From Nanobdellota archaeon (GTDB taxonomy: Archaea > Nanobdellota > Nanobdellia > Pacearchaeales > GW2011-AR1): DNA of 32,000 bases. The translations under genes and the position numbers were made by a program. The DNA lies in NCBI GenBank assembly GCA_038045265.1, contig JBBSYL010000015.1:21780-53779 (forward strand), read 5' to 3'. Below, one piece after another: positions 3,149 through 29,409 of this stretch. Below the pieces are notes generated by a model. That model made no database searches and was not told the DNA's origin. It worked only from the letters and a program-made list of their open reading frames with translations. The first letter of the stretch is position 1, and each line of letters opens with the position of its first letter.

Positions 3149-3769
3149 TTACCATCCATCATCTGTTTCTTTAAGCATTTTAGCAATATTTGCCTGAACT
3201 TCAGGAGTTATTCCAAGTCTTTTCTTTTCAAAATCAGAATCATATCCGTGTAAAACATCATAAACTTCTCTAACTATTCTAGTTCCTTCATCTGAACTTC
3301 CGAAATAAGCTATTCTTCCAATAAGTCCACATTTCACAGAATCATTTCTTCCAATAGGCATATTCATGTCAAATTTTCTTTCAAGTTTATGTTCTTTATA
3401 ATCTCTCAATTTAACATTAACCTTTCCATGAATAGTCAATACCCCATTCTCCCCTCCAGAGGAAGCATCAGCCACAAAATCATATCCTACAATTATTGCT
3501 TTATTTGCCTCAGGAAAAGAGGTATTAAGAGGTACTTTAACAGTCCTATCTGATTCAAATCTTCCTCTTGGTTCTTGTCCAGAAAGTCTATACTCTACTT
3601 TTTTCAAGCTTGCATCATCAATCAATCTAAGTTGTAATAACTGTAAATCCGCCCTAAATCTTGAAACATCTATATCATGAACCCTCATAACCTCTTCAAC
3701 AAAACTACTTCTATTGATACTTTTTGTAAAATCAAAATCAAGAGCAGTGGTTATTTGTCCATAATACAT
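3149..3769 (-). CDS. hypothetical protein (206 aa)
   Basis: A long ORF with non-repetitive composition. On the minus strand a TATA-like CTTTAAATA lies about 25 nt upstream of ATG 3769. I recognise no family. Confidence 0.6.
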   Translation of the reverse strand: MYYGQITTALDFDFTKSINRSSFVEEVMRVHDIDVSRFRADLQLLQLRLIDDASLKKVEYRLSGQEPRGRFESDRTVKVPLNTSFPEANKAIIVGYDFVADASSGGENGVLTIHGKVNVKLRDYKEHKLERKFDMNMPIGRNDSVKCGLIGRIAYFGSSDEGTRIVREVYDVLHGYDSDFEKKRLGITPEVQANIAKMLKETDDGW

Positions 3770-3843: not shown

Positions 3844-4155
3844 ATGGAAATTGAAGAAGTAAGAAAGAAAATAAACGAAATAGACTATAAAATAATAGAA
3901 CTTATTGTGCAAAGATTCAAGCTTGTAAAAGAAGTTGCACTTCACAAGTTCACAAATAACCTTCCCTTAAAAGATCCAAGTAGAGAAAAAGCTCTTATAG
4001 AAGACAGAAATGCAAAGTTTGAAAAACTAGGATTTAAAGATAGCGGTTTTGTTAGCTCTCTCTACTCAACAATAATAAAAAAATCAATAAAATTACAGAA
4101 GAATTATATGAAAAAGCATAAGAAAGATAGAGAAGAAAAACTAACTGGGGTTTAA
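3844..4155 (+). CDS. chorismate mutase (AroQ / type II, all-helical)
   Basis: It shows the AroQ pattern EEVRKKINEIDYKIIELIVQRFKLVKEVALHK...PLKDPSREKALIED. The 103-aa size is typical of monofunctional AroQ. Confidence 0.75.
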   Translation: MEIEEVRKKINEIDYKIIELIVQRFKLVKEVALHKFTNNLPLKDPSREKALIEDRNAKFEKLGFKDSGFVSSLYSTIIKKSIKLQKNYMKKHKKDREEKLTGV

Positions 4156-7101
4156 ATCTTCTTTTTTGTTTTCAGTATTCTCTGTTGGAGATTGCAAGGC
4201 AACCTTTTCTATCTCCTTTTCAATATCTCTAGCTTGAGACAAATCAAGAGAAAGTATCTTTGAAACATTGTCATGCATACTTACTCCATAGAGAACTTGG
4301 GAATTCATAATTATAGCATCATTATGTGTTATAACAATATATTGTCCGGCCTTCATATATTTCTTAAGTAGTGCACCTAATCTTTCAGAATTTCTTTTAT
4401 CCAGAGCAGCATCAATTTCATCAAAGACGTAAAAATGATATGGTTTATACTCTTGTATCGCAAATAATAATGACAAAGCAACAAGCGTCTGTTCTCCTCC
4501 AGATAAGGAAGTAACATCAAAATACTTTCCTTTTGCAAGTCTTACCACTATGTTTACCCCGCCTGCAAAAATATCTTCTTTGTTTTCAAGTTCAAGATAA
4601 GCAACTCCTTTAGTATATAATTGTGCAAAATTCTGTGAAAAAAGTTCAGACATTGCGTTGAAAGTCTTCATGAAACTTCTCTTTTTCTTCTTGTCAATCT
4701 CTTCAATTATCTTCAATATCTCATTCTTTTCATTTTCTAATGTATTGACTTTTTCCTGCACAGAATCATATTCCTTCTTCATATCTTCATAAACTTCCAA
4801 TGCTCTTAAGTTAATACTCCCTATTTTCTGTAATGCTTCCTGCGTCTTTACAAGCCTTTCTTCGAAATAATTCATGCTTCCCTGCATTAATTCTATGCCT
4901 GCATAATCAGACAAGTCCATACCTATAGCCTCTTTTTCAGCATCCAATTTTGCTTTTCCAACTTTAAGATAATTTATTTGATCTTCAACTGCTCTTATTT
5001 CAGAATTTAATTCGCTTAACCTAAAATTAATTTCTTGTATTTCATGCTGGACTTTCTCTCTTTCTTCAAATAACTCTTTGAATTTCTTCTGGAATTCTTT
5101 TTCCTGCAAATCTTTTCTTGCGAGCTGTTCATTTTTTTCATCAAAACTTCTAGCAAGTTCGTTTATACTGTTTTCTAAATCCTTCAAGTCTCTCTTTCCA
5201 TTCTTTACTATGCTCAAAACCTTTTCAAGATCTCTTTGTTTATATAAAAGGCTAGTCTCAACATCTCCGCTGGTTCTGCTGGATATTTCTTCTATTTCAA
5301 GCATCTTTGCTTCGTATTTTTCTTCAAGCCCATACATTTCCTGTGTCTTCTCTTCAAGTTTTCTTCCACTTTCCTCAAGATTTCTTAATTCTTGTCTGAG
5401 TATGTTTTCATTTTCAACAAGTTTTCTCAATTGATCTTTTTTGTCTCTTATTGAGTCATGTCTCATCTTCTCAAGTTCAGAATTAGAAATATTTTCATCT
5501 ATTCCATCTATTCTTTTTTTCAAATTCTCGCATTCTCTCTTAAGCTTTTCAAGTTCCTTGTTTGAATTATCTATTACCTTTTCAGAATTACCTATTATCT
5601 TTTCCTGCTCAATATTAACATGAGATATATGTTCTGAGGTCATTTTACTCAGACACATAGGGCAGGTATCTATCTCATTTATTCTTGATTTTATTTTCTT
5701 TGCCTTTTCAAGCTCTGACTCAGCCACAGATGCAGACTTTTCATGATTCATTATAGAGCTCTGTCTTTGTTCTATTGTGTGCCTTGTATCTTCAAGCTCA
5801 TTTCTTAACTCTTTTATTATCTTGGAGCATTCTTCAGAGCTTTTGTGAGATAGGCCTTTTTCAAATGATTCAATCTGTCTCAACATATTTTCAGATTCTC
5901 CAGTATTTCTTGCGAGCTGTCTTTCCCTTTCTTTTATTACTTCCCTTACTCCAACTAGTTCATTCTTTAATGAATGTACTTTCTCTCTCTCTTCTTTTAT
6001 TCCATTTAATTCATCCTTCTTTTTTTTCAATTCTTCGGACTTCTCAGCCATCTTTGGAGACTCTTCCTTAAGTTCTTGAATTTCTTTTTCAAATTCAGGA
6101 ATAGATTTTTCCATTTCAGTCACTCTTCTATCTACCTCTCTTTTCCTATTTTCATAATTCTCTCTTCTTACTCTTAAACCTTCAAGCTCAGCTTTTAGAT
6201 TTGCAATATCATCGTTGAGTTTTTCCTGTTCAATACCACTTGACCTCTGTATGTGTTTCGTTATTTCATTTATTCTTTCATTTAATTTTTCTTGTTCATC
6301 GCTCGCATTTCTAGCTTCTTCCTTAAATTTTTCTTTTTGTTTATCTTTTTCCCCTATTGACTTTACAATGCTTTCTATCTCTTTATCTTTCTCATTAGCT
6401 TTTCTTGCAAGTATAGATGCATTTATCCTTTTCAGATTGTTCTCCAGTTCCTTGAATTTAAGCGCCTCCTGTCTTTCTCTATCTAAATTTCTCAAGTAAG
6501 CCGTTCTCTCTCTCAAAACTGTGCCTATTTCTTTCAACTTTCCTTCTGTCTTCTCCAATTCCTTCAAGCTTTTCTCTTTTCTTAACTCATAAATAGCGAT
6601 TCCGGCAACTTCCTCTATTATCTTTCTTCTATCTTCAGGATGCATTTTCACAATACTTTGTATCTGGCCTTGTAAAACAAGATTAAACCCATAGGGGTCT
6701 ATGCCTGCCTGTGCAAGAGTCTCTATAACTTCTATCCTCGTCTTAGTCTCTTCATTTATCCTATATACGCCTTGCCCATTATACTTGACAATTCTTTTTA
6801 AGCTTATTTCATCATTATCAATATTGAATCCCCTATCAGAATTATCAAATACAAGCTCAACCATCGCCTCCCTTGCAGGCTTAATATATTTACTTCCCAT
6901 AAAAAGCAAGTTCTTGGCTTTCGCAGCCCTCATACTTTTTATAGATAATCTTCCAAGAACAAAACATAATGCGTCAGATACATTGCTTTTTCCACTTCCA
7001 TTCGGTCCCAGAATTACATTAATTCCAGTATCAAAGACTATTTCAGTGCGCCTTGCAAAGCTCTTGAAGCCATGCATCACCATTCTTTTTATATGCACCA
7101 T
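4141..7101 (-). CDS. smc: SMC-family chromosome-segregation ATPase, with a CPxC zinc-hook motif at the coiled-coil apex instead of a recognisable hinge
   Basis: The N-terminal head is GFKSFARRTEIVFDTGINVILGPNGSGKSNVSDALCFVLG (Walker A), followed by QGQIQSIVKMHPEDRRKIIEEVAGI. The C-terminal head is LSGGEQTLVALSLLFAIQEYKPYHFYVFDEIDAALD (signature plus Walker B). Long Lys/Glu-rich coiled coils lie between the heads. ATG 7101 is preferred over the TTG at 7107 because the TATA box lies 23 nt upstream of 7101. Confidence 0.9.
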   Translation of the reverse strand: MVHIKRMVMHGFKSFARRTEIVFDTGINVILGPNGSGKSNVSDALCFVLGRLSIKSMRAAKAKNLLFMGSKYIKPAREAMVELVFDNSDRGFNIDNDEISLKRIVKYNGQGVYRINEETKTRIEVIETLAQAGIDPYGFNLVLQGQIQSIVKMHPEDRRKIIEEVAGIAIYELRKEKSLKELEKTEGKLKEIGTVLRERTAYLRNLDRERQEALKFKELENNLKRINASILARKANEKDKEIESIVKSIGEKDKQKEKFKEEARNASDEQEKLNERINEITKHIQRSSGIEQEKLNDDIANLKAELEGLRVRRENYENRKREVDRRVTEMEKSIPEFEKEIQELKEESPKMAEKSEELKKKKDELNGIKEEREKVHSLKNELVGVREVIKERERQLARNTGESENMLRQIESFEKGLSHKSSEECSKIIKELRNELEDTRHTIEQRQSSIMNHEKSASVAESELEKAKKIKSRINEIDTCPMCLSKMTSEHISHVNIEQEKIIGNSEKVIDNSNKELEKLKRECENLKKRIDGIDENISNSELEKMRHDSIRDKKDQLRKLVENENILRQELRNLEESGRKLEEKTQEMYGLEEKYEAKMLEIEEISSRTSGDVETSLLYKQRDLEKVLSIVKNGKRDLKDLENSINELARSFDEKNEQLARKDLQEKEFQKKFKELFEEREKVQHEIQEINFRLSELNSEIRAVEDQINYLKVGKAKLDAEKEAIGMDLSDYAGIELMQGSMNYFEERLVKTQEALQKIGSINLRALEVYEDMKKEYDSVQEKVNTLENEKNEILKIIEEIDKKKKRSFMKTFNAMSELFSQNFAQLYTKGVAYLELENKEDIFAGGVNIVVRLAKGKYFDVTSLSGGEQTLVALSLLFAIQEYKPYHFYVFDEIDAALDKRNSERLGALLKKYMKAGQYIVITHNDAIIMNSQVLYGVSMHDNVSKILSLDLSQARDIEKEIEKVALQSPTENTENKKEDLNPS

Positions 7102-7124
7102 TTGCAAATCAATAAACAGAGCGA

Positions 7125-7462: not shown

Positions 7463-8710
7463 TTAGTAGTAGCTCTCTCCGAACTCTTCAGACTTTTGCG
7501 GTTTTCTTGTTAGCAAAACTATCAAGACAACTAATAGAACTACGAAAATGATGGCCAGAATAACTGTCAATACGACAGTAGCATCTGCTCCAGCACCCTT
7601 GCTTGTTCCATTAATTTTTGCCTCGAAGCTTTCTTTCTTTACGAGTTCTCCGTTAGAGTTTACGTTTACAGCGAAACTGTATGTTCCAGCTTCATTTGCA
7701 GAAGCTTCTACAGTTACTGTCTTGCTTGTTCCAGCAGGAACAGCAAATACGCTTTCAGAAGCTCCAAGTGTTATTCCACTAGGACTTTCAAAGCTTATAT
7801 CGTAAACCATTGTATTAGATCCAGTGTTAACTACTGTAACAGCATATGCTCCCTTTTCACCAACAGCAATTGTCTTGCTTGTTGAAGTGGAAACAACTTT
7901 GCTATCAGCGCCAGGTCCAACAATTGCAACTTTTTTAGTTATAGTTGTTGAAGAATCGGAATTGAAGGCTTCAAATTGAACTGTATAGATTCCTGCAGGT
8001 GTACCCTGTGGAACTTTCAAACTCAATCTTCTAAAGCCAGCATCTTCCTTTTCAATTCTGTCGTTTCCAGTGCTAACAAATGGATCCTCGGAGAATGGCT
8101 GGTCTTCTGGTGACAAATCGCCAAAGTAGGCTCTTGTCTCAACACTAAGTGCAGGAATTGTCATCCTGACAAAAGTGTCTTCTGCGAATTCTCTTCCTCT
8201 GTTCTTCAATACAATGTCAGCAACAAGATTACTTCCTGCTGATACAGTATTGTCCATTGCAACGTCAAGAACCTCTACTAGGTAGGATTCTCTTTTTGCA
8301 ACCAAAGAAATTGTTGCACTGTCAGCAACTCCAGCATTTTTACTCTCAACTGTTACAGTCAGAGTTAAAGGTTCTCTTGAATCAATGTCAAAAGGCACAT
8401 TTACAGCAAGAAGTCTGCTATATGTGTCTCCGTCATCTACAATAAACCTGCTGGTTACTGCAGCAACAGAATCGCTTCCAGATATTTCAGCTTTCACTCG
8501 TACATCAGTCGCATCAGCAGTTCCTGTGAAGATTACTCTTACAGGTACAGTTTCGCCAGCAACAACGGTGATGTCTGGGCTACCGTTTAGGGCTTCAATC
8601 CCAGAAACTTCAACGCTGTCGATAGTTGCGAAAGCACTAGCACTGCTAACGAAAAGCACTGCAAATGCAACAAGTGCAACAAGAGAAACCAGTATCTTTT
8701 TGGATTCCAT
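7463..8710 (-). CDS. secreted, C-terminally membrane-anchored cell-surface protein with Ig-like/CARDB-type beta-rich repeats (S-layer-like)
   Basis: The N-terminal signal peptide is MESKKILVSLVALVAFAVLFVSSASA. The body is Thr/Ser/Val-rich and beta-strand-like. A C-terminal TM helix (VVLTVILAIIFVVLLVVLIVLL) is followed by a short charged tail. The gene looks more GC-rich than its neighbours. Confidence 0.75.
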   Translation of the reverse strand: MESKKILVSLVALVAFAVLFVSSASAFATIDSVEVSGIEALNGSPDITVVAGETVPVRVIFTGTADATDVRVKAEISGSDSVAAVTSRFIVDDGDTYSRLLAVNVPFDIDSREPLTLTVTVESKNAGVADSATISLVAKRESYLVEVLDVAMDNTVSAGSNLVADIVLKNRGREFAEDTFVRMTIPALSVETRAYFGDLSPEDQPFSEDPFVSTGNDRIEKEDAGFRRLSLKVPQGTPAGIYTVQFEAFNSDSSTTITKKVAIVGPGADSKVVSTSTSKTIAVGEKGAYAVTVVNTGSNTMVYDISFESPSGITLGASESVFAVPAGTSKTVTVEASANEAGTYSFAVNVNSNGELVKKESFEAKINGTSKGAGADATVVLTVILAIIFVVLLVVLIVLLTRKPQKSEEFGESYY

Positions 8711-11148: not shown

Positions 11149-11376
11149 ATGAAAACAATAACGATAAAGCTCCCAGAAAATGAAGCGAGTGATTTAGATG
11201 AATATATTAAAAGAAAGAATTATTTGTCTAAATCTGAATTTGTAAGAAATTTAATTATGGAGAAACTAGAGACGACTAGAAAAGAAAAAGCTGGTTGGTT
11301 AATAGTTGCAGAGAAATCTATGAAAAATATTTGGGATAATAAAAAAGATGATGAAATATGGGGTAAATACTTATGA
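11149..11376 (+). CDS. CopG/RHH-family antitoxin (MazE-like partner of the downstream MazF)
   Basis: MKTITIKLPENEASDLDEYIKRKNYLSKSEFVRNLIMEKL is a typical RHH sequence. Its stop overlaps the start of the toxin gene (ATGA at 11373-11376). Confidence 0.75.
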   Translation: MKTITIKLPENEASDLDEYIKRKNYLSKSEFVRNLIMEKLETTRKEKAGWLIVAEKSMKNIWDNKKDDEIWGKYL

Positions 11377-11708
11377 TAGAACAAAGAGATTTACTTCTGA
11401 TACCATTTCCCTTTTCAGACCAATCTGGAAGAAAGGTTCGTCCAGTTATGGTAGTAAGTAACAATAACTTTAATGAGCATTCTGAAGATGCAATAGTTGT
11501 AGGTGTAACCTCAAATATTACAAAAGATAAATATACTGTAAGACTAGATAATAAAGACTTAGAAGATGGTAAATTAATAACAAATTGTGTAATAAAATCT
11601 GAAAATCTACTAAAGTTAGATAAACATTTAATAATAAAGAAGATAGGAAAAATTTCAGTAAACAAATTAAAAGAAACTATAAATGTAATTAATAGTATCA
11701 TCAATTAA
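11373..11708 (+). CDS. mazF: MazF/PemK-family endoribonuclease toxin
   Basis: RDLLLIPFPFSDQSGRKVRPVMVVS is the PemK N-terminal signature. The 111-aa size and the coupling to an RHH antitoxin both fit. Confidence 0.85.
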   Translation: MIEQRDLLLIPFPFSDQSGRKVRPVMVVSNNNFNEHSEDAIVVGVTSNITKDKYTVRLDNKDLEDGKLITNCVIKSENLLKLDKHLIIKKIGKISVNKLKETINVINSIIN

Positions 11709-12496
11709 TCATTCATCTTATCATAAATTTTCATCCCCTCAACGCTATCTTCAACCATCTCCGGACTTTCATTAATTATTCTTATCTCTTTATCTTTTGG
11801 TAAATGTGCAAGCAATTCTTTCCATCCTTCAACTGGCGTTTTAATATGATTCTTCTCCCCCTTATCTCCATATACAATTCCAGAAAAATGTACATGCCAT
11901 TCCCTCCCAGGAAATAATTTTATAACTTTATCATAATCGACTTTCTTCTCTCTTGCTAGAATATGCGCAAAGTCAATGCAAAATGCGCATCCAGTTTCCT
12001 TTACAAGTCGAGATATCTCTTCAACACTTCCAAACACATTTATCTTTCCCATTGTTTCAGGAGCAATTTTTATCTTCCATTTATTTTTCTTTATCTCTTC
12101 CATTATTTCCAATACCCCTTTTTTTATTGTCTGATAACTCTTCTCCTTGCTTTCTTCATCTTTAGCTTTATTCAGATAATATCCAGGATGAAATACAACT
12201 ACTTTAGCTCCTAGCTTTTCTCCAATTGCACAACAATCAAGAATTCTTTTCTTTGTCGCTTCTCTTTTTTCCTTCTCGGCAGAATTCAAATTCACCCAAT
12301 ATTGTGCGTGTATAGATAAATAAATTCCTAACTTTCGTGCAATTTCGCCAATCTTAACAGCCTCATCTGGCTTTATGTAAACACTATAAGTAAAAGCAAT
12401 TTCACATGCTCTCAATCCAAGTTTATGATATCCCTCTAAAACTGCCGAAGCAGTTTTGACAGGTCCAAGTCCAGCGGGACCAAATTTAATTGCCAT
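11705..12496 (-). CDS. nfo: endonuclease IV (AP endonuclease family 2, TIM barrel)
   Basis: Conserved blocks align with Nfo: SIHAQYWVNLNS, VVFHPGYY, APETMGK, CIDFAHILA, HVHFSG, NH and IINESP. The start could be ATG 12496 (MAIKFGPAGLG) or 12511. Confidence 0.8.
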   Translation of the reverse strand: MAIKFGPAGLGPVKTASAVLEGYHKLGLRACEIAFTYSVYIKPDEAVKIGEIARKLGIYLSIHAQYWVNLNSAEKEKREATKKRILDCCAIGEKLGAKVVVFHPGYYLNKAKDEESKEKSYQTIKKGVLEIMEEIKKNKWKIKIAPETMGKINVFGSVEEISRLVKETGCAFCIDFAHILAREKKVDYDKVIKLFPGREWHVHFSGIVYGDKGEKNHIKTPVEGWKELLAHLPKDKEIRIINESPEMVEDSVEGMKIYDKMND

Positions 12497-12944
12497 TTGC
12501 TTTATCAGCACTTCCTTTCATCGCTTTCTCAATAAAGTCTAGAAATTTATTTATGTCATTATTCAACTCTTCAGATACGGCAGAATATATCTTTTTATCA
12601 TCTATCTCTCCGTATCTATGTGCTAAGTAATTTCTCATCGCTTTTGCTTCAATAAGTTTTTTAGCCATTTCTTTGCTTATAATATTTTTATCGGCTAAAA
12701 TTTCAAATACTTCAGAATCATCTTCAGGTATTCTAACATTTTTATCTTTTTCAACTATCCTCTCTTTAAACACAAGAAAAGCAATATCAACTACACATTC
12801 TATTATTTTCTCACAATATCTCTCACAAGCGGCTTTTTTCTCAATGTTAGTTTCATATTCTTCAAAATTGTCTGGCTTTATCTCTGAAAGTTCATCTAAA
12901 AATTTAGAAATTTGCTCAATCTTATCATTAATTCTTTCGTTCAT
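12486..12944 (-). CDS. hepT: HepT-like HEPN (DUF86) toxin
   Basis: The Rx4-6H HEPN motif appears in AKAMRNYLAHRYGEID. The gene overlaps the 3' end of the upstream MNT gene. The start could be 12944 (MNERIND) or 12965. Confidence 0.8.
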   Translation of the reverse strand: MNERINDKIEQISKFLDELSEIKPDNFEEYETNIEKKAACERYCEKIIECVVDIAFLVFKERIVEKDKNVRIPEDDSEVFEILADKNIISKEMAKKLIEAKAMRNYLAHRYGEIDDKKIYSAVSEELNNDINKFLDFIEKAMKGSADKANGN

Positions 12945-13434
12945 AAAGCACACTCCCCTTTTCATCTATTTCTTTTTTTATTTTATCAGGAAGGAAATTA
13001 TAAACCTCAACTTGTGTTTTGCTTTCTGCAAATTCTATGCTGAATTGAAATGCTTCTTTTTTGTTTATTTTATCAAATTCAACTGCAATATCAATGTCCG
13101 AGCGGAATGTTCTTATCCCATATGCACTTGAACCATACAAAATTATTCTTTTTATTTTAGGAAAATATTTGCTCTGCATAATACCTTCTTTTATAATATT
13201 AATCTTATTTTTCAGTTCGTATCCTTTTTTCAGGACATCTAATGAATAAGAGGAAAGCATCTGAATCGCTAAAAATTTCTTCTTTATATCTCTTGATAAC
13301 CTTGTTCTTTCAGATGGCGTTAATCTTATGCCCATTAATTGTTTTTCTATAATTTCTAGCTCTCGCTCTCCAAATATCCTTCTCATTTCAGGTTTTTTTA
13401 TGACATTTATTAATTCCATTTTCATCAACAACAT
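12928..13434 (-). CDS. mntA: MNT-type minimal nucleotidyltransferase antitoxin with an extra N-terminal helical segment
   Basis: ILYGSSAYGIRTFRSDIDIAVEF matches the GSxxxG...DxD polymerase-beta nucleotidyltransferase motif. The start is uncertain (13470, 13434, 13425 or 13419). A TATA box at 13481-13488 (minus strand) is too close to 13470 and so favours a later ATG. Confidence 0.75.
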   Translation of the reverse strand: MLLMKMELINVIKKPEMRRIFGERELEIIEKQLMGIRLTPSERTRLSRDIKKKFLAIQMLSSYSLDVLKKGYELKNKINIIKEGIMQSKYFPKIKRIILYGSSAYGIRTFRSDIDIAVEFDKINKKEAFQFSIEFAESKTQVEVYNFLPDKIKKEIDEKGSVLYERKN

Positions 13435-13509
13435 AATATTTATTATCACTATGCTGATAATAGTTATCATAATGATGATATATTTAAATCTTTCTCTTCG
13501 CGTAAATCT

Positions 13510-24463: not shown

Positions 24464-26092
24464 ATGAACGATTCAACGCCTATTTATGAATTAGCCAATA
24501 GAGGGGGAGTTGATTTCGAATCTGTTCTAGAATTAAGTATTGCTACGCAGGAAGCAGGAGTATCAGATTTGCAATCTTTAAGATCATCTGCTTCAGAATT
24601 AAAACAAAAACTTCTTTTATCTTCTGGTGCCTCAAAGTTGTTCGATGAAATAGTCGCAGGAAAATATTCTGCAACAGAGACTCGCGCCTCTTTAAAAAAA
24701 GAAACCTCTCCAGAAGTAAATAATCAAGAGCAAACAAAAACAATCGAAGATAAACTCCAAGCTAAAAACTCTCCAACAACTTCCACAGCTCAATCTCAGC
24801 CACCTGAGCAAGAGCCAAAGAAATCTGAACTCTCTGTGACAGAGAAGAAACTTGCGCTTGGATGGAAAAAGATGAATTTAGCAAAATTACCTGCAGTCGC
24901 AGTTTTAGGACATATAGAAAATATGGGCAAAAAAATGCAAATTCATGCTTATATTGTCAGAAACAATGTTAAAACTCTGCAAGATTTAGAAAACACGCCT
25001 TATCATAATTTCACCTCATTCAGATTAGAAAGAGATAGATGTGTAAGTACTTTTGCGGTGGCTTCAATGAGAGAAGCAATAGCAGATAATTTTTGGGTAG
25101 ATCCTAAAAAAGAAAATATGTTAAGAAATCAAGCAGACGCAATTCCAAATAATTCATATCCAGTTTCAGACTTAATAGCCCATATTGCAGAAGAAAGTGA
25201 AGGAGTCGCAGCATATGTTAGAAGTTATGTAGGAGAAAGAAAAATAAGGACAGTAGATGGGTTGTCCTCTTTATCAGATTCTGTTTTACGAGGGGGAGGT
25301 TTTAAAGAAAAATCTCTTAGTCTTGTAAGAGATATTATCGCAGAAAGATATCCCTCTCTGATAAATAGAGAATCTCAAAGCGTTCCAGATGAGAGATCAG
25401 AAAAAAAAGAGGATACTTCTCCAAAAGTTGTAAGAGGTTATTCATGCGAGGTAGATGGATGTAGATTAACTGTAAATGGTCAAAGAATAATTGCACAGCC
25501 AAATTATAGAATAGGGGTTTTAACTGTAACAGAAATGACAAAAAAATTAGAGAGAATGTTTAGCCTCCATTCTCAAGGAAAGGATCCAGAAGAAATAAAA
25601 AGAGATCCTAGTATAGGATTTAGCGTAGAAACTATAAATGATTATTTAGCTAAAGCAAGAGTTATTCCAGAACAGAAAATTCCTGTTCAAGTCTTAAAAG
25701 AGCCACTAAGAAATTATCAATTTAGGAGAGATGGATGTAGATTAACTGTAAATGGTCAAGAGATAAAATTAGTGCGTGGGAAAGGAGGTAATAAAGATAC
25801 TTTGGCTAAAAATCTAGAGAGAATTTTTCATATGCATTCCATTGAAGGAAAGAATCCTGATGAAATTTACAGAGACCCAGGAGTTAAGCTAGTTTTACCA
25901 ACAATTATGAAATATTTAAGAATAGCCAAAGTTATACCGCAAGCAGTTACAGATAAAGAGAAGCTACTCCCAAGTGAAGTTTATTTAGAATCAAGAGTAG
26001 TGTATGATGCGGATTTGAATGCAACTGTCCATCCTGCACCTCCAAGAAACCCTTTAGAATTTCAGCCTACATTGGAAAATTTATTAAAATAA
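24464..26092 (+). CDS. hypothetical protein with a low-complexity linker, HhH-like segments and a tandem about-92-aa duplicated C-terminal domain (HTH-like)
   Basis: The two repeat units start at YSCEVDGCRLTVNGQ and YQFRRDGCRLTVNGQ. Each ends in G-K-(D/N)-P-(E/D)-EI-x-RDP...YL..A(K/R)VIP. I recognise no family. Confidence 0.7.
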   Translation: MNDSTPIYELANRGGVDFESVLELSIATQEAGVSDLQSLRSSASELKQKLLLSSGASKLFDEIVAGKYSATETRASLKKETSPEVNNQEQTKTIEDKLQAKNSPTTSTAQSQPPEQEPKKSELSVTEKKLALGWKKMNLAKLPAVAVLGHIENMGKKMQIHAYIVRNNVKTLQDLENTPYHNFTSFRLERDRCVSTFAVASMREAIADNFWVDPKKENMLRNQADAIPNNSYPVSDLIAHIAEESEGVAAYVRSYVGERKIRTVDGLSSLSDSVLRGGGFKEKSLSLVRDIIAERYPSLINRESQSVPDERSEKKEDTSPKVVRGYSCEVDGCRLTVNGQRIIAQPNYRIGVLTVTEMTKKLERMFSLHSQGKDPEEIKRDPSIGFSVETINDYLAKARVIPEQKIPVQVLKEPLRNYQFRRDGCRLTVNGQEIKLVRGKGGNKDTLAKNLERIFHMHSIEGKNPDEIYRDPGVKLVLPTIMKYLRIAKVIPQAVTDKEKLLPSEVYLESRVVYDADLNATVHPAPPRNPLEFQPTLENLLK

Positions 26093-26093
26093 A

Positions 26094-27389
26094 ATGCAAA
26101 AATCAAGATTTAATATTTTAAACTATATTCCAGAAGATGGAGCAGAGTTTGTATTAAATAAAGCAGAAGAAATAAAAAGATATGCAAGGGGCGTAGAGGA
26201 CAGATTAAAATTAGTTTCAAAATTATTTTTAAGAAGAAGGTTTGGGTGTGCGGAGGCAATTGTTCAAGGAGAGTTTCCCAGACTGCCTAAAAGAGTATTT
26301 CATGGACAGCAAAGATTCTGCGAAGAAGAAGCCGTCAAGGATTTTCTTCTTCTTTCTGCATTGGGAATTCCAAGACTTTATGCATCATGCGAAAATTTCA
26401 AAAATCTTGGTTTAGGTCATGCATTAGTTTTGGTTCCTTCAAAAAGCCATTTCATCATGCCATATTATGGAGATTTAATGAATGTTAAAATGGAAGGAGA
26501 TAGATTATATGATTTGGATACTAGAACATGTGTAGCATCTGGCTTAGATATAAAACCTGATGAACAAGTTTTGGCATTATTAAGACAAAACAAAAGAAAA
26601 GTTTTAGGCAGAGCCACAAGCCCTCAATTGCTTGATAGAGTAAGAACAAATAGGGGAAACATAGAAGCAAGAATGTTTTACTCTCCAGATGAACTGAGAA
26701 TTGAATATATAGTAACTGATGTAACCACAAATTCTCCTTTTTATTATGACCAAAGATTAAAAAAATCGGGCAATACTTTCTTAGCTTTAGAAGAATGCGG
26801 ACTTGCACTAAACAGGGCAGGATTTTCGTGTAACAAGATACCTTTGTTTACTTCTCCTCCATTAAAGAGCTTAACAAAACAAGCAACTCAATCAATTAAA
26901 GATTCAGAGACAAGAAACTTAACTCTTGGAGTTATGTATAACATAATGCTTGAAAGTTGTGGAGATGACTTTTTATCCACCGCAAGTGAGCGCTGGGAAC
27001 TTGTTGCAGATTTAGAGAGTAAATCAAAAAGCCAAGATAAAGCAACAGCAGATGAAGCAAGAGCAACACTAGATTATAATACTCTGCTTAGAAGAGTAAA
27101 CGGACCTGTTGCTTCAGCAACTTATCTTGACTCTCTAATAGTAAGAATGGAAACTTTCAGAAGAGATGGCTTAAATCTTGGACAGGCATTCAGAAGAATT
27201 TCCGCACTTCCATTTCCAGCAGGATTGTTTTCAGAATTTTGTAGAATAAATATTAAGAGTTTAAAAGATAATTATTTTAACAATTATCTTAACGCAGAAT
27301 TAAAGCTTACAGAGGAATTCACTTCTTCAAATCCAAGAAAACTGCCTAAATTAATGTTAGATTTAGTCTTAATTTGTTACTCAAGTTAA
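26094..27389 (+). CDS. hypothetical protein with a possible N-terminal transglutaminase-like (papain-fold) Cys-His-Asp core
   Basis: It starts 1 nt after the upstream stop. GQQRFC(76)EEEAVKDFLLLSALGIPRLYAS ... GH(109)ALVLV ... YYGD(127) matches the spacing of the TGase-core pattern G.C..FA......LRALGIPAR ... HAW.EV ... D. This is a motif-level match only. Confidence 0.65.
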   Translation: MQKSRFNILNYIPEDGAEFVLNKAEEIKRYARGVEDRLKLVSKLFLRRRFGCAEAIVQGEFPRLPKRVFHGQQRFCEEEAVKDFLLLSALGIPRLYASCENFKNLGLGHALVLVPSKSHFIMPYYGDLMNVKMEGDRLYDLDTRTCVASGLDIKPDEQVLALLRQNKRKVLGRATSPQLLDRVRTNRGNIEARMFYSPDELRIEYIVTDVTTNSPFYYDQRLKKSGNTFLALEECGLALNRAGFSCNKIPLFTSPPLKSLTKQATQSIKDSETRNLTLGVMYNIMLESCGDDFLSTASERWELVADLESKSKSQDKATADEARATLDYNTLLRRVNGPVASATYLDSLIVRMETFRRDGLNLGQAFRRISALPFPAGLFSEFCRINIKSLKDNYFNNYLNAELKLTEEFTSSNPRKLPKLMLDLVLICYSS

Positions 27390-27409
27390 ACACAATTTCG
27401 CGAAAAAAG

Positions 27410-27417
27410 TTTAAATA
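27410..27417 (+). promoter_or_regulatory. BRE/TATA element (AAAAGTTTAAATAC) for the GHKL ATPase gene
   Basis: There are 21 nt between TTTAAATA and ATG 27439. The 14-mer is the same as at 3811-3824. Confidence 0.55.
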
Positions 27418-27438
27418 CATCCCATGCTAAAAATTTAA

Positions 27439-29409
27439 ATGTCCCAGCAACCTTTAGAAGTTTTGGTAGTAAATAGAACAGTCGGAGAGGATCTCCTAGA
27501 AACAGTAAGCAATAATGTTTGTGACGGTCCATTGCATGCAGTAGCAGAACTTGTTGCTAATTCTTGGGATGCCGATGCACATTTAGTTGAGATAGAAATA
27601 GACAAGCCGGGAAATAGAATTTTGATAAAAGATGATGGTTCAGGAATGGACAGAGCAGGGATTGATGCATTTTACAGAACTGGAGATAGCCCAAAGAAAG
27701 TTGAAAAAACTTCCCCCAGTGGAAGACCAAGATTGGGCAGATATGGAATTGCCGCCTTTGCAACAAAAGCTCTAGCTAACGTCTGTGAATTAACTACAAT
27801 AAGAGATAGAAGTAGATTCCATTGCAGAGAAGAATTTGGAGAATCACAATTAATAGGAAAGTCATTAGAAGTTTCCGTTTTCAAAGCTCCAGAAAGAGAA
27901 CACGGAACGGAGATTTTACTTACTAATTTAAAAGTTGCAGATTATGCAGAATTTAATCAATTTGAATTAAGAAGTTATCTTGCTTCCCATTTTCATCAGA
28001 TAAGAGCAGAAAATAATTTTGTTGTTATTGTAAACGGAGAGTCGGTAAAATCAAGAGTAATAGAAGGAGCAGTCAGATTTTCAGTTGATACAGCGGGCGA
28101 ACACACTGGACCAATTAAAGGCACGATATATTTGACAGGAAGAAGAACAAAGGATGCAGGAGTGCATATTAGGGTAGATGGTAGAGAAATAGGAGACTCA
28201 AAGAGGCTTATTAATTTAGAATATATAAAGCGTTCAACCGCAGGAAGAGTCATTGTAGAAGTTCAAGCAGACGATATGCGCCAGTACATTACCTCAAGAA
28301 GAGACGGGTTTATTCCTGGAAAAGCGCTGGACGAATTAAAAAGATTAATCAGAAAAGAATTAATAGAAGTCAATAGGTATGCTGTCCAAGGTGCGACAGC
28401 GACTAAATCAAGGCACTTGAGAGGAAAGAGAGATAAGGTTCTTACAAATGTAAAAGCTCACTTTAAGTCTAGGCAAGTCCCAGAAATTGCAGAAGTGTCT
28501 TTAATATTTGAATCAGAAAATAAACAAGAAGTTCCATCGCATCTTCCAGCACTTTATGATGAAAAGTCAAGAAGAGTAGTATTAAATCCAAATTATGCAA
28601 CCTTAGATACTGATAAAGCTCAAAATGAACTTTCTTTAAAGCTTGGAGTAGTTGATGCTGTTGCAACCGCCATTGCAGAATTTAGAACAAGGGGTTCAGG
28701 TTTAGGGCAATTAGAAAGATTCCTAAAACATAAAGCTTTGCTATTAGCACAAGTCGCACCAAGACATAAAAAAGAAGAAAAAGGAAGCGAAATATTTTCA
28801 AATGCACATTACGAACTTAAGACTCTTGCCAGTTTATCAGGCCACTCAATCCCCCATCTTAGACACGCTGTAAGCGGAGGATTGCTTTCAGTTACCCAAA
28901 GCGGAGAAGTTATGGGCATAGCCTTTAAGGAAATGATCAGAAGGGTTGGTGGTTTAATCACTCTTTATCAATTAATAGAAGAAAACGTACCCATGAAAGA
29001 TCAAGCAGAGCAATTAAGACACGGGCAAAGATTCACAAAAGTATTATCTTTAATGGGTGATGAAACAGTTACTCCATTCTTTCATAATCTTACTACTAAT
29101 GGTAGTCCCTGCTATTTTGCAGAACCATCATGCGCTAAAGAATTAGCAGATTTAATGGCAGGCACAGACCTTAGAAAAATAAGAGATTCAGAATTGCCAG
29201 GTATAATGAAGGCCCATAAAGAGCAGTATTTTAGTCTTGGAGATATGGCAGAAAGACTTAAGATGCTTAAAGGAGACGTTGCGGGCGTATTAAATTATGT
29301 AGAATCAAAAGGCCTAAAAATTGATCAGAGAGAAAGAGGAAGAGGAATTCAGATAAATTACGCAGATTTCATATCTGCTTTACAGCATAAAAGAAAAGCA
29401 GAGTTTTAA
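27439..29409 (+). CDS. GHKL-superfamily ATPase (HATPase_c_3 / MORC-Hsp90-like Bergerat fold) with a long C-terminal extension
   Basis: The N box is ELVANSWDA (27547-27573). The G1 box is IKDDGSGM (27631-27648). The G2-like box is GRYGIAAFA. A GTEILL motif follows. The C-terminal about 400 aa are helical or wHTH-like and I cannot assign them. Confidence 0.8.
   Translation: MSQQPLEVLVVNRTVGEDLLETVSNNVCDGPLHAVAELVANSWDADAHLVEIEIDKPGNRILIKDDGSGMDRAGIDAFYRTGDSPKKVEKTSPSGRPRLGRYGIAAFATKALANVCELTTIRDRSRFHCREEFGESQLIGKSLEVSVFKAPEREHGTEILLTNLKVADYAEFNQFELRSYLASHFHQIRAENNFVVIVNGESVKSRVIEGAVRFSVDTAGEHTGPIKGTIYLTGRRTKDAGVHIRVDGREIGDSKRLINLEYIKRSTAGRVIVEVQADDMRQYITSRRDGFIPGKALDELKRLIRKELIEVNRYAVQGATATKSRHLRGKRDKVLTNVKAHFKSRQVPEIAEVSLIFESENKQEVPSHLPALYDEKSRRVVLNPNYATLDTDKAQNELSLKLGVVDAVATAIAEFRTRGSGLGQLERFLKHKALLLAQVAPRHKKEEKGSEIFSNAHYELKTLASLSGHSIPHLRHAVSGGLLSVTQSGEVMGIAFKEMIRRVGGLITLYQLIEENVPMKDQAEQLRHGQRFTKVLSLMGDETVTPFFHNLTTNGSPCYFAEPSCAKELADLMAGTDLRKIRDSELPGIMKAHKEQYFSLGDMAERLKMLKGDVAGVLNYVESKGLKIDQRERGRGIQINYADFISALQHKRKAEF

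Follow-up and report, generated by a model that had tools for sequence, protein, structure and literature searches.

Reviews describe SMC (structural maintenance of chromosomes) proteins as carrying a hinge and working with a kleisin, and Rad50 as carrying a zinc hook and working with Mre11 (PMC10586767). Can one protein have the head of the first and the apex of the second? The question is raised by a gene for a 986-amino-acid (aa) protein on a 32,000-nucleotide stretch of a Nanobdellota archaeon (NCBI GenBank assembly GCA_038045265.1, contig JBBSYL010000015.1, positions 21,780 to 53,779 of the forward strand). This whole stretch is referred to as the window. An initial annotation had proposed SMC-type heads joined by a Rad50-type zinc hook in place of a hinge, as a hybrid between condensin-type SMC and Rad50. 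This architecture was supported by the present analysis, and tests of the hinge, of the CxxC motif and of the head phylogeny did not refute it. By head, arms, phylogeny and presumed kleisin partner the protein is an SMC; it fails to show the defining hinge and has a Rad50 dimerisation module.

In the list of open reading frames (ORFs), the gene lies in the minus-strand frame 4141..7107, which gives 988 aa when begun at TTG. Homologues begin with MV(H/Y)IK, matching the ATG at 7101, and the true start was therefore set to this ATG, giving 986 aa. Features of the gene are as follows.

4141..7101, minus strand: complete coding sequence of the hook-type SMC, 986 aa plus stop (SMC_N, 5e-49; TIGR02169, 5.8e-158).
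6607..7101, minus strand: N-terminal half of the ABC (ATP-binding cassette) ATPase head, residues 1-165 (against Pyrococcus Smc head, residues 2-250, E 1.5e-100).
Inside 6607..7101, minus strand: Q-loop QGQI, residues 144-147, read as a motif.
6985..7008, minus strand: Walker A or P-loop GPNGSGKS, residues 32-39, nearly every position invariant in 48 homologues.
5674..6606, minus strand: predicted ascending coiled-coil arm, residues 166-476 (helices of the AlphaFold 2 (AF2) model; SMC_prok_A profile positions 1-468).
5617..5673, minus strand: predicted Rad50-type zinc hook segment IDTCPMCLSKMTSEHISHV at the arm apex, residues 477-495 (profiles and apex model).
5653..5664, minus strand: C480-P-M-C483, proposed zinc ligands (translation and conservation).
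4627..5616, minus strand: predicted descending coiled-coil arm, residues 496-825 (AF2 helices).
4144..4626, minus strand: C-terminal half of the ATPase head with a variable acidic tail, residues 826-986 (head profile match).
4489..4506, minus strand: ABC signature motif LSGGEQ, residues 866-871, read as a motif.
4411..4437, minus strand: Walker B and D-loop region HFYVFDEID, residues 889-897, read as a motif.

The head motifs (Walker A, Q-loop, signature, Walker B/D-loop and H-loop) are present, invariant and of SMC sequence type, and all those quoted in the initial annotation were recovered. Pfam SMC_N covers residues 5-948 (E 5e-49). Among the NCBIfam models, SMC_prok_A (TIGR02169) ranked top (5.8e-158, 527.7 bits), followed by SMC_prok_B (TIGR02168, 509.5 bits). 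The best Rad50 model reached 108.2 bits (~1e-31; Rad50 cutoffs 700-1087). The ASRP model NF045487 reached 129.8 bits (E 1e-37, cutoff 300), with the C-terminal head alone matching. Both SMC equivalog cutoffs were missed (729.4 bits for TIGR02169 and 567.35 bits for TIGR02168), a shortfall that is consistent with the hinge part of the profile having no match. Hook SMCs that fall under these cutoffs could be mislabelled in annotation. Against structures in the PDB, the heads matched Pyrococcus and other Smc at 1.5e-100 to 1e-47, and the best Rad50 at 8.7e-13.

The first stretch of the SMC_prok_A alignment placed query residues 5-476 on profile positions 1-468, and the N-terminal arm is therefore SMC-like, beyond the head alone. 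Using MAFFT, both arms could be aligned with those of hinge-type SMCs; the arm length of ~310 residues is similar to SMC. A full-length AF2 model was computed from a 48-sequence alignment (mean predicted local distance difference test score, pLDDT, 71). Helices were predicted at 155-476 (ascending: 155-331, 334-345, 352-414 and 422-476) and at 489-825 (descending: 489-586, 589-607, 613-731, 743-760 and 766-825). The predicted helices fit a long intramolecular antiparallel coiled-coil arm of the SMC size class (~45-50 nm). The heads were modelled poorly (many head segments with pLDDT <50; predicted template modelling score 0.31). For this reason the full-length model was kept out of the fold search, and its helix and turn pattern alone was used. 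Walker A and CPxC are 448 residues apart in 111/134 sequences, and CPxC and LSGGE are 386 residues apart in 112/134. These fixed arm lengths fit the published finding that Smc, also as a hook chimera, depends on its arm geometry to function (PMC5344682).

Within the arms, conserved coiled-coil breaks were located at residues 345-352 (~6046-6069) and 607-613 (~5263-5283), with invariant P349 in the N-terminal arm and S607/R609 in the C-terminal arm. In the AF2 model the two breaks pair ~60% up the arm and may form an elbow- or joint-like site.

For the apex, SMC_hinge (PF06470) gave no Pfam match in the 986-aa protein even at E<=1. With the same annotation pipeline, PF06470 was detected in the closest hinge-type relative (P0151). 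No globular hinge was found by Pfam or NCBIfam profiles, nor in the full-length or apex AlphaFold models, in agreement with the earlier statement that no Gly-rich hinge is visible. When hook, hinge and short forms are aligned with MAFFT, ~180 hinge residues (GIHG...FLPLN...LDGD...GG) are replaced by ~20 residues, and the flanking arms align. In the full-length model the two arm helices are joined by a non-helical 12-residue turn at 477-488. A separate apex model of residues 435-534 (pLDDT 95.6) shows the same order of elements: a helix (fragment residues 2-42), the 12-residue CPMC turn and a helix (55-99).

With the apex model as query, the top Foldseek match in the PDB was the P. furiosus Rad50 zinc hook 1L8D (template modelling (TM) score 0.88/0.86, root mean square deviation 2.0 Å, 100 columns). 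Rad50_zn_hook (PF04423) was the top Pfam match of the window apex fragment (E 8e-4). It matched 29/30 close homologues (E<=0.1, best 4.5e-7) and 16/20 representatives at <50% identity (E<=1e-3, best 3.9e-8). Two apex profiles were compared with the PDB. Profile A4, built from 20 diverse apex segments, matched 1L8D and 6ZFF at E 7e-8 over 73 positions, with the next unrelated entry at 0.013; its alignment with 1L8D is centred on CP.C..(I/L)T.EH. Profile A2, built from close homologues alone, matched 1L8D weakly (E 0.12). With the diverse profile, the resemblance to the Rad50 hook claimed earlier has statistical support.

Translation of the minus strand confirmed CPMC at 5653-5664 as residues 480-483. 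It is the sole CxxC of the 986-aa protein. C-P-[LMI]-C is present in 120/120 close homologues (the best 120 of >5000 matches in a word-indexed search, 56-64% identity), in the context ID.CPLCQSKIT.EH..HV. C-P-x-C is present in 20/20 distant representatives, down to ~37% identity. The spacing of CPxC from the head motifs is constant. The motif is not a chance CxxC, because it is the only one, is invariant in homologues and keeps a constant distance from the head. Clade-wide, C, P and C alone are invariant in the hook; in distant members other residues stand in place of His at +11 and +14. As judged from alignments and models, a Rad50/SbcC-type CxxC hook sits at the coiled-coil apex and would bind zinc.

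A third cysteine, C425 (EECSK, window 5827-5829), is conserved in at least 90% of close homologues. Its position is 55 residues ahead of the hook and just past the arm break predicted at residues 414-422.

None of the best 120 homologues carries a hinge Pfam domain. Their length is 946-1082 aa, except for intein-bearing members of ~1500 aa, and those with a taxon name belong to Nanoarchaeota or Pacearchaeota. Architectures of the relatives were taken from an exhaustive search of 50%-identity representatives. The nearest relatives are of three kinds. Hook types have ~946-1023 aa and reach down to 37% identity (e.g. P0145, Pacearchaeota). Hinge types have ~1100-1200 aa at 33-38% identity, and the named ones are Woesearchaeota with PF06470. 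Short types have ~780-805 aa and neither hinge nor apex cysteines. A scan of GTDB species genomes returned 46 DPANN loci with close relatives, and the hook is present in every complete copy except the short form at L041. The hook architecture was found in >130 distinct proteins. A survey of DPANN genomes had been suggested at the outset; it places relatives with the hinge-less form in Pacearchaeota and Nanoarchaeota.

For phylogeny, a neighbour-joining tree was calculated from 657 well-occupied columns of 109 full-length sequences and rooted on bacterial SMC. All hook-type sequences and four short forms make up one clade, sister to the Woesearchaeota-type hinge SMCs. This clade was recovered in 60/60 bootstrap replicates. 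The 986-aa protein nests within DPANN SMCs and is not an ordinary Rad50, which the initial annotation had named as a possible outcome of head placement.

Several variants were seen among the relatives. Short forms P0141, P0142, P0143, P0148 and L041:9908-12346 (~780-812 aa) belong to the hook-SMC clade; P0141 is from a Pacearchaeota metagenome-assembled genome (PIU75690.1). They are without roughly window residues 372-590, i.e. the distal arm past the conserved coiled-coil break, and their arm ends near the elbow-like break of residues 345-352/607-613. The tree does not group the short forms together but intersperses them with hook forms, a pattern suggestive of repeated loss. Several orthologues (P0007, P0008, P0022, P0027, P0064, P0066, P0070, P0127, L027:998-5449 and L032:4705-9246) reach ~1480-1575 aa owing to an intein of ~525 aa (PF14890 Intein_splicing and PF14528 LAGLIDADG_3). 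Where an alignment was reported, the intein is inserted at or near the Walker A P-loop (query resuming at 32 in P0022 and 38 in P0127). Some hinge-bearing relatives have strongly shortened arms and only ~810-850 aa (P0214, P0215, P0216, P0222, P0232, P0237 and P0257), and P0198 and P0205 are hinge forms of ~960 aa. Arm length is therefore unusually plastic among these SMC relatives.

The window is AT-rich (GC 31-37%) and contains housekeeping genes including tRNA-Met, RNase HII, EF-1alpha, Cdc48, a Toprim-domain protein and AP endonuclease. Related contigs were scanned within +/-10 kb of each locus. The order AP endonuclease, small ORF, surface protein, SMC, RNase HII is kept in most related loci, and RNase HII also adjoins the Woesearchaeota hinge-type SMC. 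Conserved order and a shared RNase HII neighbour fit an orthologous gene in which the replacement occurred in place. ORF clustering of 47 loci revealed no ScpA, ScpB or Mre11 beside the gene, and none beside the Woesearchaeota hinge-type SMC. A Mre11-like gene was absent from the window and from the 46 related loci, the search being confined to these loci. By regex scan, no second Walker-A ORF of SMC-like or Rad50-like type was found in the fetched loci.

The initial annotation had stated that no ScpA or ScpB gene is adjacent. For the window this holds; ScpA is, however, encoded in related genomes that have this protein. On a Pacearchaeota contig (L021), a ScpA gene lies 6 kb upstream of the hook-SMC gene; it was spotted by a motif regex (DPW) and then confirmed with Pfam (PF02616, E 6e-10, profile positions 1-229/232). 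A second ScpA (P0350) and the hook-SMC of L029 share the 575-kb contig JAIFVX010000001.1. ScpA homologues are numerous in the lineage (61-76% identity). Since ScpA is encoded in related hook-SMC genomes, the protein is best seen as a kleisin-associated SMC. Directly after ScpA on the 575-kb Pacearchaeota contig lies a 120-aa ORF (L051:6930-7292) with no family match.

The best explanation, which we consider probable, is an orthologous Pacearchaeota-type DPANN Smc in which the hinge was ancestrally replaced by a Rad50-type hook, giving a Cys4 Zn2+ apex dimer in a ring closed by ScpA. Zinc binding, coordination between chains and the resulting dimer geometry, ScpA binding and the cellular role are what we infer. 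Each of two protomers would fold into an antiparallel coiled coil of roughly 46 nm. One Zn2+ would be held in a Cys4 site by Cys480 and Cys483 of both protomers, in the style of the Rad50 hook, and this site would yield a constitutive apex dimer. The SMC-type heads would engage and disengage driven by ATP. The kleisin ScpA, from a gene located elsewhere in the genome, would link the heads and close the ring. Such a complex would organise the chromosome like Smc-ScpA(B), with no hinge-dependent step. For the order as a whole (Pacearchaeota/Pacearchaeales), it appears reasonably likely that the essential Smc-ScpA motor uses a zinc hook captured from Rad50 and that sub-lineages deleted the distal arm together with the hook.

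Several observations weigh against this explanation. Foldseek gave 1L8D a weak E value (0.017), with prefoldin and other generic coiled-coil hairpins scoring nearly as high. The window protein itself stays below the gathering threshold of Rad50_zn_hook (19.6 vs 24.3 bits). Neither Rad50 nor ASRP sequences served as outgroups in the neighbour-joining tree. The 32-kb window yielded no ScpA, and an interaction of ScpA with this SMC is presumed. The same clade also holds members without hinge and hook (P0141-P0143 and P0148), so apex dimerisation may not be indispensable in the lineage. This last point, together with the conservation of H491 (invariant) and H494 (at least 90%) in homologues at 56-64% identity, would suit an intramolecular zinc knuckle. 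CxxC, His491 and His494 (C-x2-C-x7-H-x2-H) would then merely stiffen the turn, and the chains would be held together by arms, heads and kleisin. In distant hook-type members, however, H491 is changed to Y, E or A and H494 is variable, leaving only C, P and C invariant. Moreover, PfRad50 has a His at the equivalent +11 position (CPVCGRELTDEH). In 1L8D the zinc ligands are four Cys contributed by two chains, which counts against a C2H2 knuckle as well. We regard the knuckle as unlikely.

An ordinary Rad50 (or SbcC) DNA-repair ATPase mislabelled as SMC would account for the apex motif, for the missing hinge and for the weak matches to Rad50 models (1e-31). SMC models nevertheless score five times higher, and their alignment takes in the N-terminal arm. 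Smc heads match at 1e-100 against 1e-12 for Rad50, the protein nests among hinge-bearing DPANN SMCs, no Mre11 was found in the window or the 46 related loci, and ScpA co-occurs in related genomes. Head scores, phylogeny and genomic context effectively refute a Rad50 identity, which is hardly credible. A specialised SMC-like paralogue, either ASRP/ClsN/Sph-like or a defence ATPase like LmuB of Lamassu, might also carry a zinc hook, since such motifs occur in ASRPs (PMC9389158) and in many LmuB (PMC10586767), and the ASRP model does match (1e-37). The 130-bit match is far under the 300-bit cutoff and the SMC score. Arms of ~310 residues also differ from proteins of ~600-650 aa in total (the ASRP model has 593 positions). 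The housekeeping synteny kept across 46 genomes, the RNase HII neighbour shared with the Woesearchaeota hinge-type SMC, the intact catalytic Walker B glutamate (FDEID) and the absence of a second SMC-like ORF among the fetched loci all argue for a housekeeping SMC, and a paralogue is therefore very unlikely. Because the source is evidently a metagenome-assembled genome, the missing hinge might be suspected to be an error of assembly or gene calling, such as a deletion confined to a single metagenome bin. Independent assemblies from NCBI, JGI, ENA and Logan, among them contigs of 575 and 760 kb, yield the same architecture in >130 distinct proteins. An artefact is refuted by this recurrence, and its probability is practically negligible.

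The proposed replacement of the hinge by a hook in an orthologous Smc was compared with known systems. Prokaryotic Smc (Smc-ScpAB, or archaeal Smc-ScpA) is like the 986-aa protein in head motifs, arms, DPANN SMC placement, ScpA in related genomes and housekeeping context. It differs in having a hinge (PF06470, ~180 aa), which is here absent, with a CPxC hook of ~20 residues instead. The Rad50/SbcC hook (PF04423; 1L8D, 6ZFF and 5GOX) shares CP(L/M)C...(I/L)T.EH in a coiled-coil hairpin (PfRad50, E 7e-8, TM 0.88), whereas head and arms are here of the SMC kind, with no Mre11 seen and a presumed kleisin partner instead.

One precedent is engineered. Burmann et al. 2017 (PMC5344682) equipped B. 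subtilis Smc with the PfRad50 hook, and cells grew normally on nutrient-rich medium; function of this Smc(Zh) chimera depended on particular arm lengths. SMC head and arms combined with a Rad50 hook are the same domain plan, and the arm-length dependence parallels the fixed arms found here. The chimera is man-made, whereas the present family is natural, lineage-wide and under long-term selection. Hook and hinge are interchangeable in Rad50 too, as seen with a Rad50-MukB-hinge chimera (PMC6969161). A zinc-hook motif also occurs in ASRPs (ClsN, Sph1/2), which are coiled-coil ABC ATPases of archaea (PMC9389158). They form a separate family (NF045487) of ~600 aa with short arms, unlike the 986-aa protein with its far better SMC match. 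Many LmuB proteins have zinc-hook motifs at ~650 aa (PMC10586767). The 'hinge-less' SMCs of marine Actinomycetes (Sussfeld et al. 2025, PMC12153180) also belong to the SMC clade and lack a hinge. They are bacterial and explicitly without a CXXC hook, and are closer to the short hook-less forms than to the 986-aa protein. A survey of archaeal SMCs counts DPANN among carriers of 'canonical aSMC' and does not mention a zinc hook (PMC8665677). No natural zinc-hook SMC was found described in open-access papers or bioRxiv; it may be mentioned elsewhere. To our knowledge, SMCs with a zinc hook have hitherto been known only as laboratory-made chimeras.

The role of the hinge past dimerisation is debated; DNA binding, a DNA entry gate and a head partner during loop extrusion have been considered. 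The family described here would be the natural counterpart of the construct of Burmann et al. 2017, with >130 sequences, rigid arm lengths and a kleisin in related genomes. If the proposed explanation holds, the hinge-replacement experiment has already been done by nature, and the hinge, with its proposed roles in DNA binding, as a gate and in loader contact, would be dispensable for core SMC function. The split into 'hinge plus kleisin versus hook plus Mre11' would then not be absolute, and domain-level exchange would have occurred between the two major branches of the coiled-coil ABC ATPases. The family could serve directly to ask which SMC activities cannot do without a hinge and in what way the geometry of the arms is matched to the module that dimerises them.

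Further genes of the window were noted. Directly upstream of the SMC gene and on the same strand, a 415-aa protein is encoded (7463-8710, minus strand; family F2, in 36 related loci). Besides Ig-like repeats it has a hydrophobic segment at either terminus, and it may be a cell-surface protein; no SMC link is obvious. Between the SMC/chorismate-mutase pair and RNase HII lies a 206-aa ORF (3149-3769, minus strand). Neither Pfam nor PADLOC matched it, and the 47 loci L001-L047 contain no homologue; gene calling also reports it on L052, a second contig from this organism.

Two toxin-antitoxin pairs were located. The first (11149-11376 and 11373-11708, both plus strand) consists of a ribbon-helix-helix antitoxin and a PemK toxin, according to Pfam marks on the matching contig L052. 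The second (12486-12965 and 12928-13470, both minus strand) consists of a HepT-like RNase and an MNT/Pol-beta nucleotidyltransferase. Nine ORFs of the window were submitted to PADLOC, and the eight without Pfam annotation gave no match. The ninth encodes a 656-aa protein with a GHKL ATPase domain (HATPase_c_3) and had a weak match to 'Type II restriction enzyme' (4.7e-13). It is the last of three co-directional genes at 24464-29409 (plus strand; 542, 431 and 656 aa), the first two of which are without family match. This gene trio may be a defence or restriction island.

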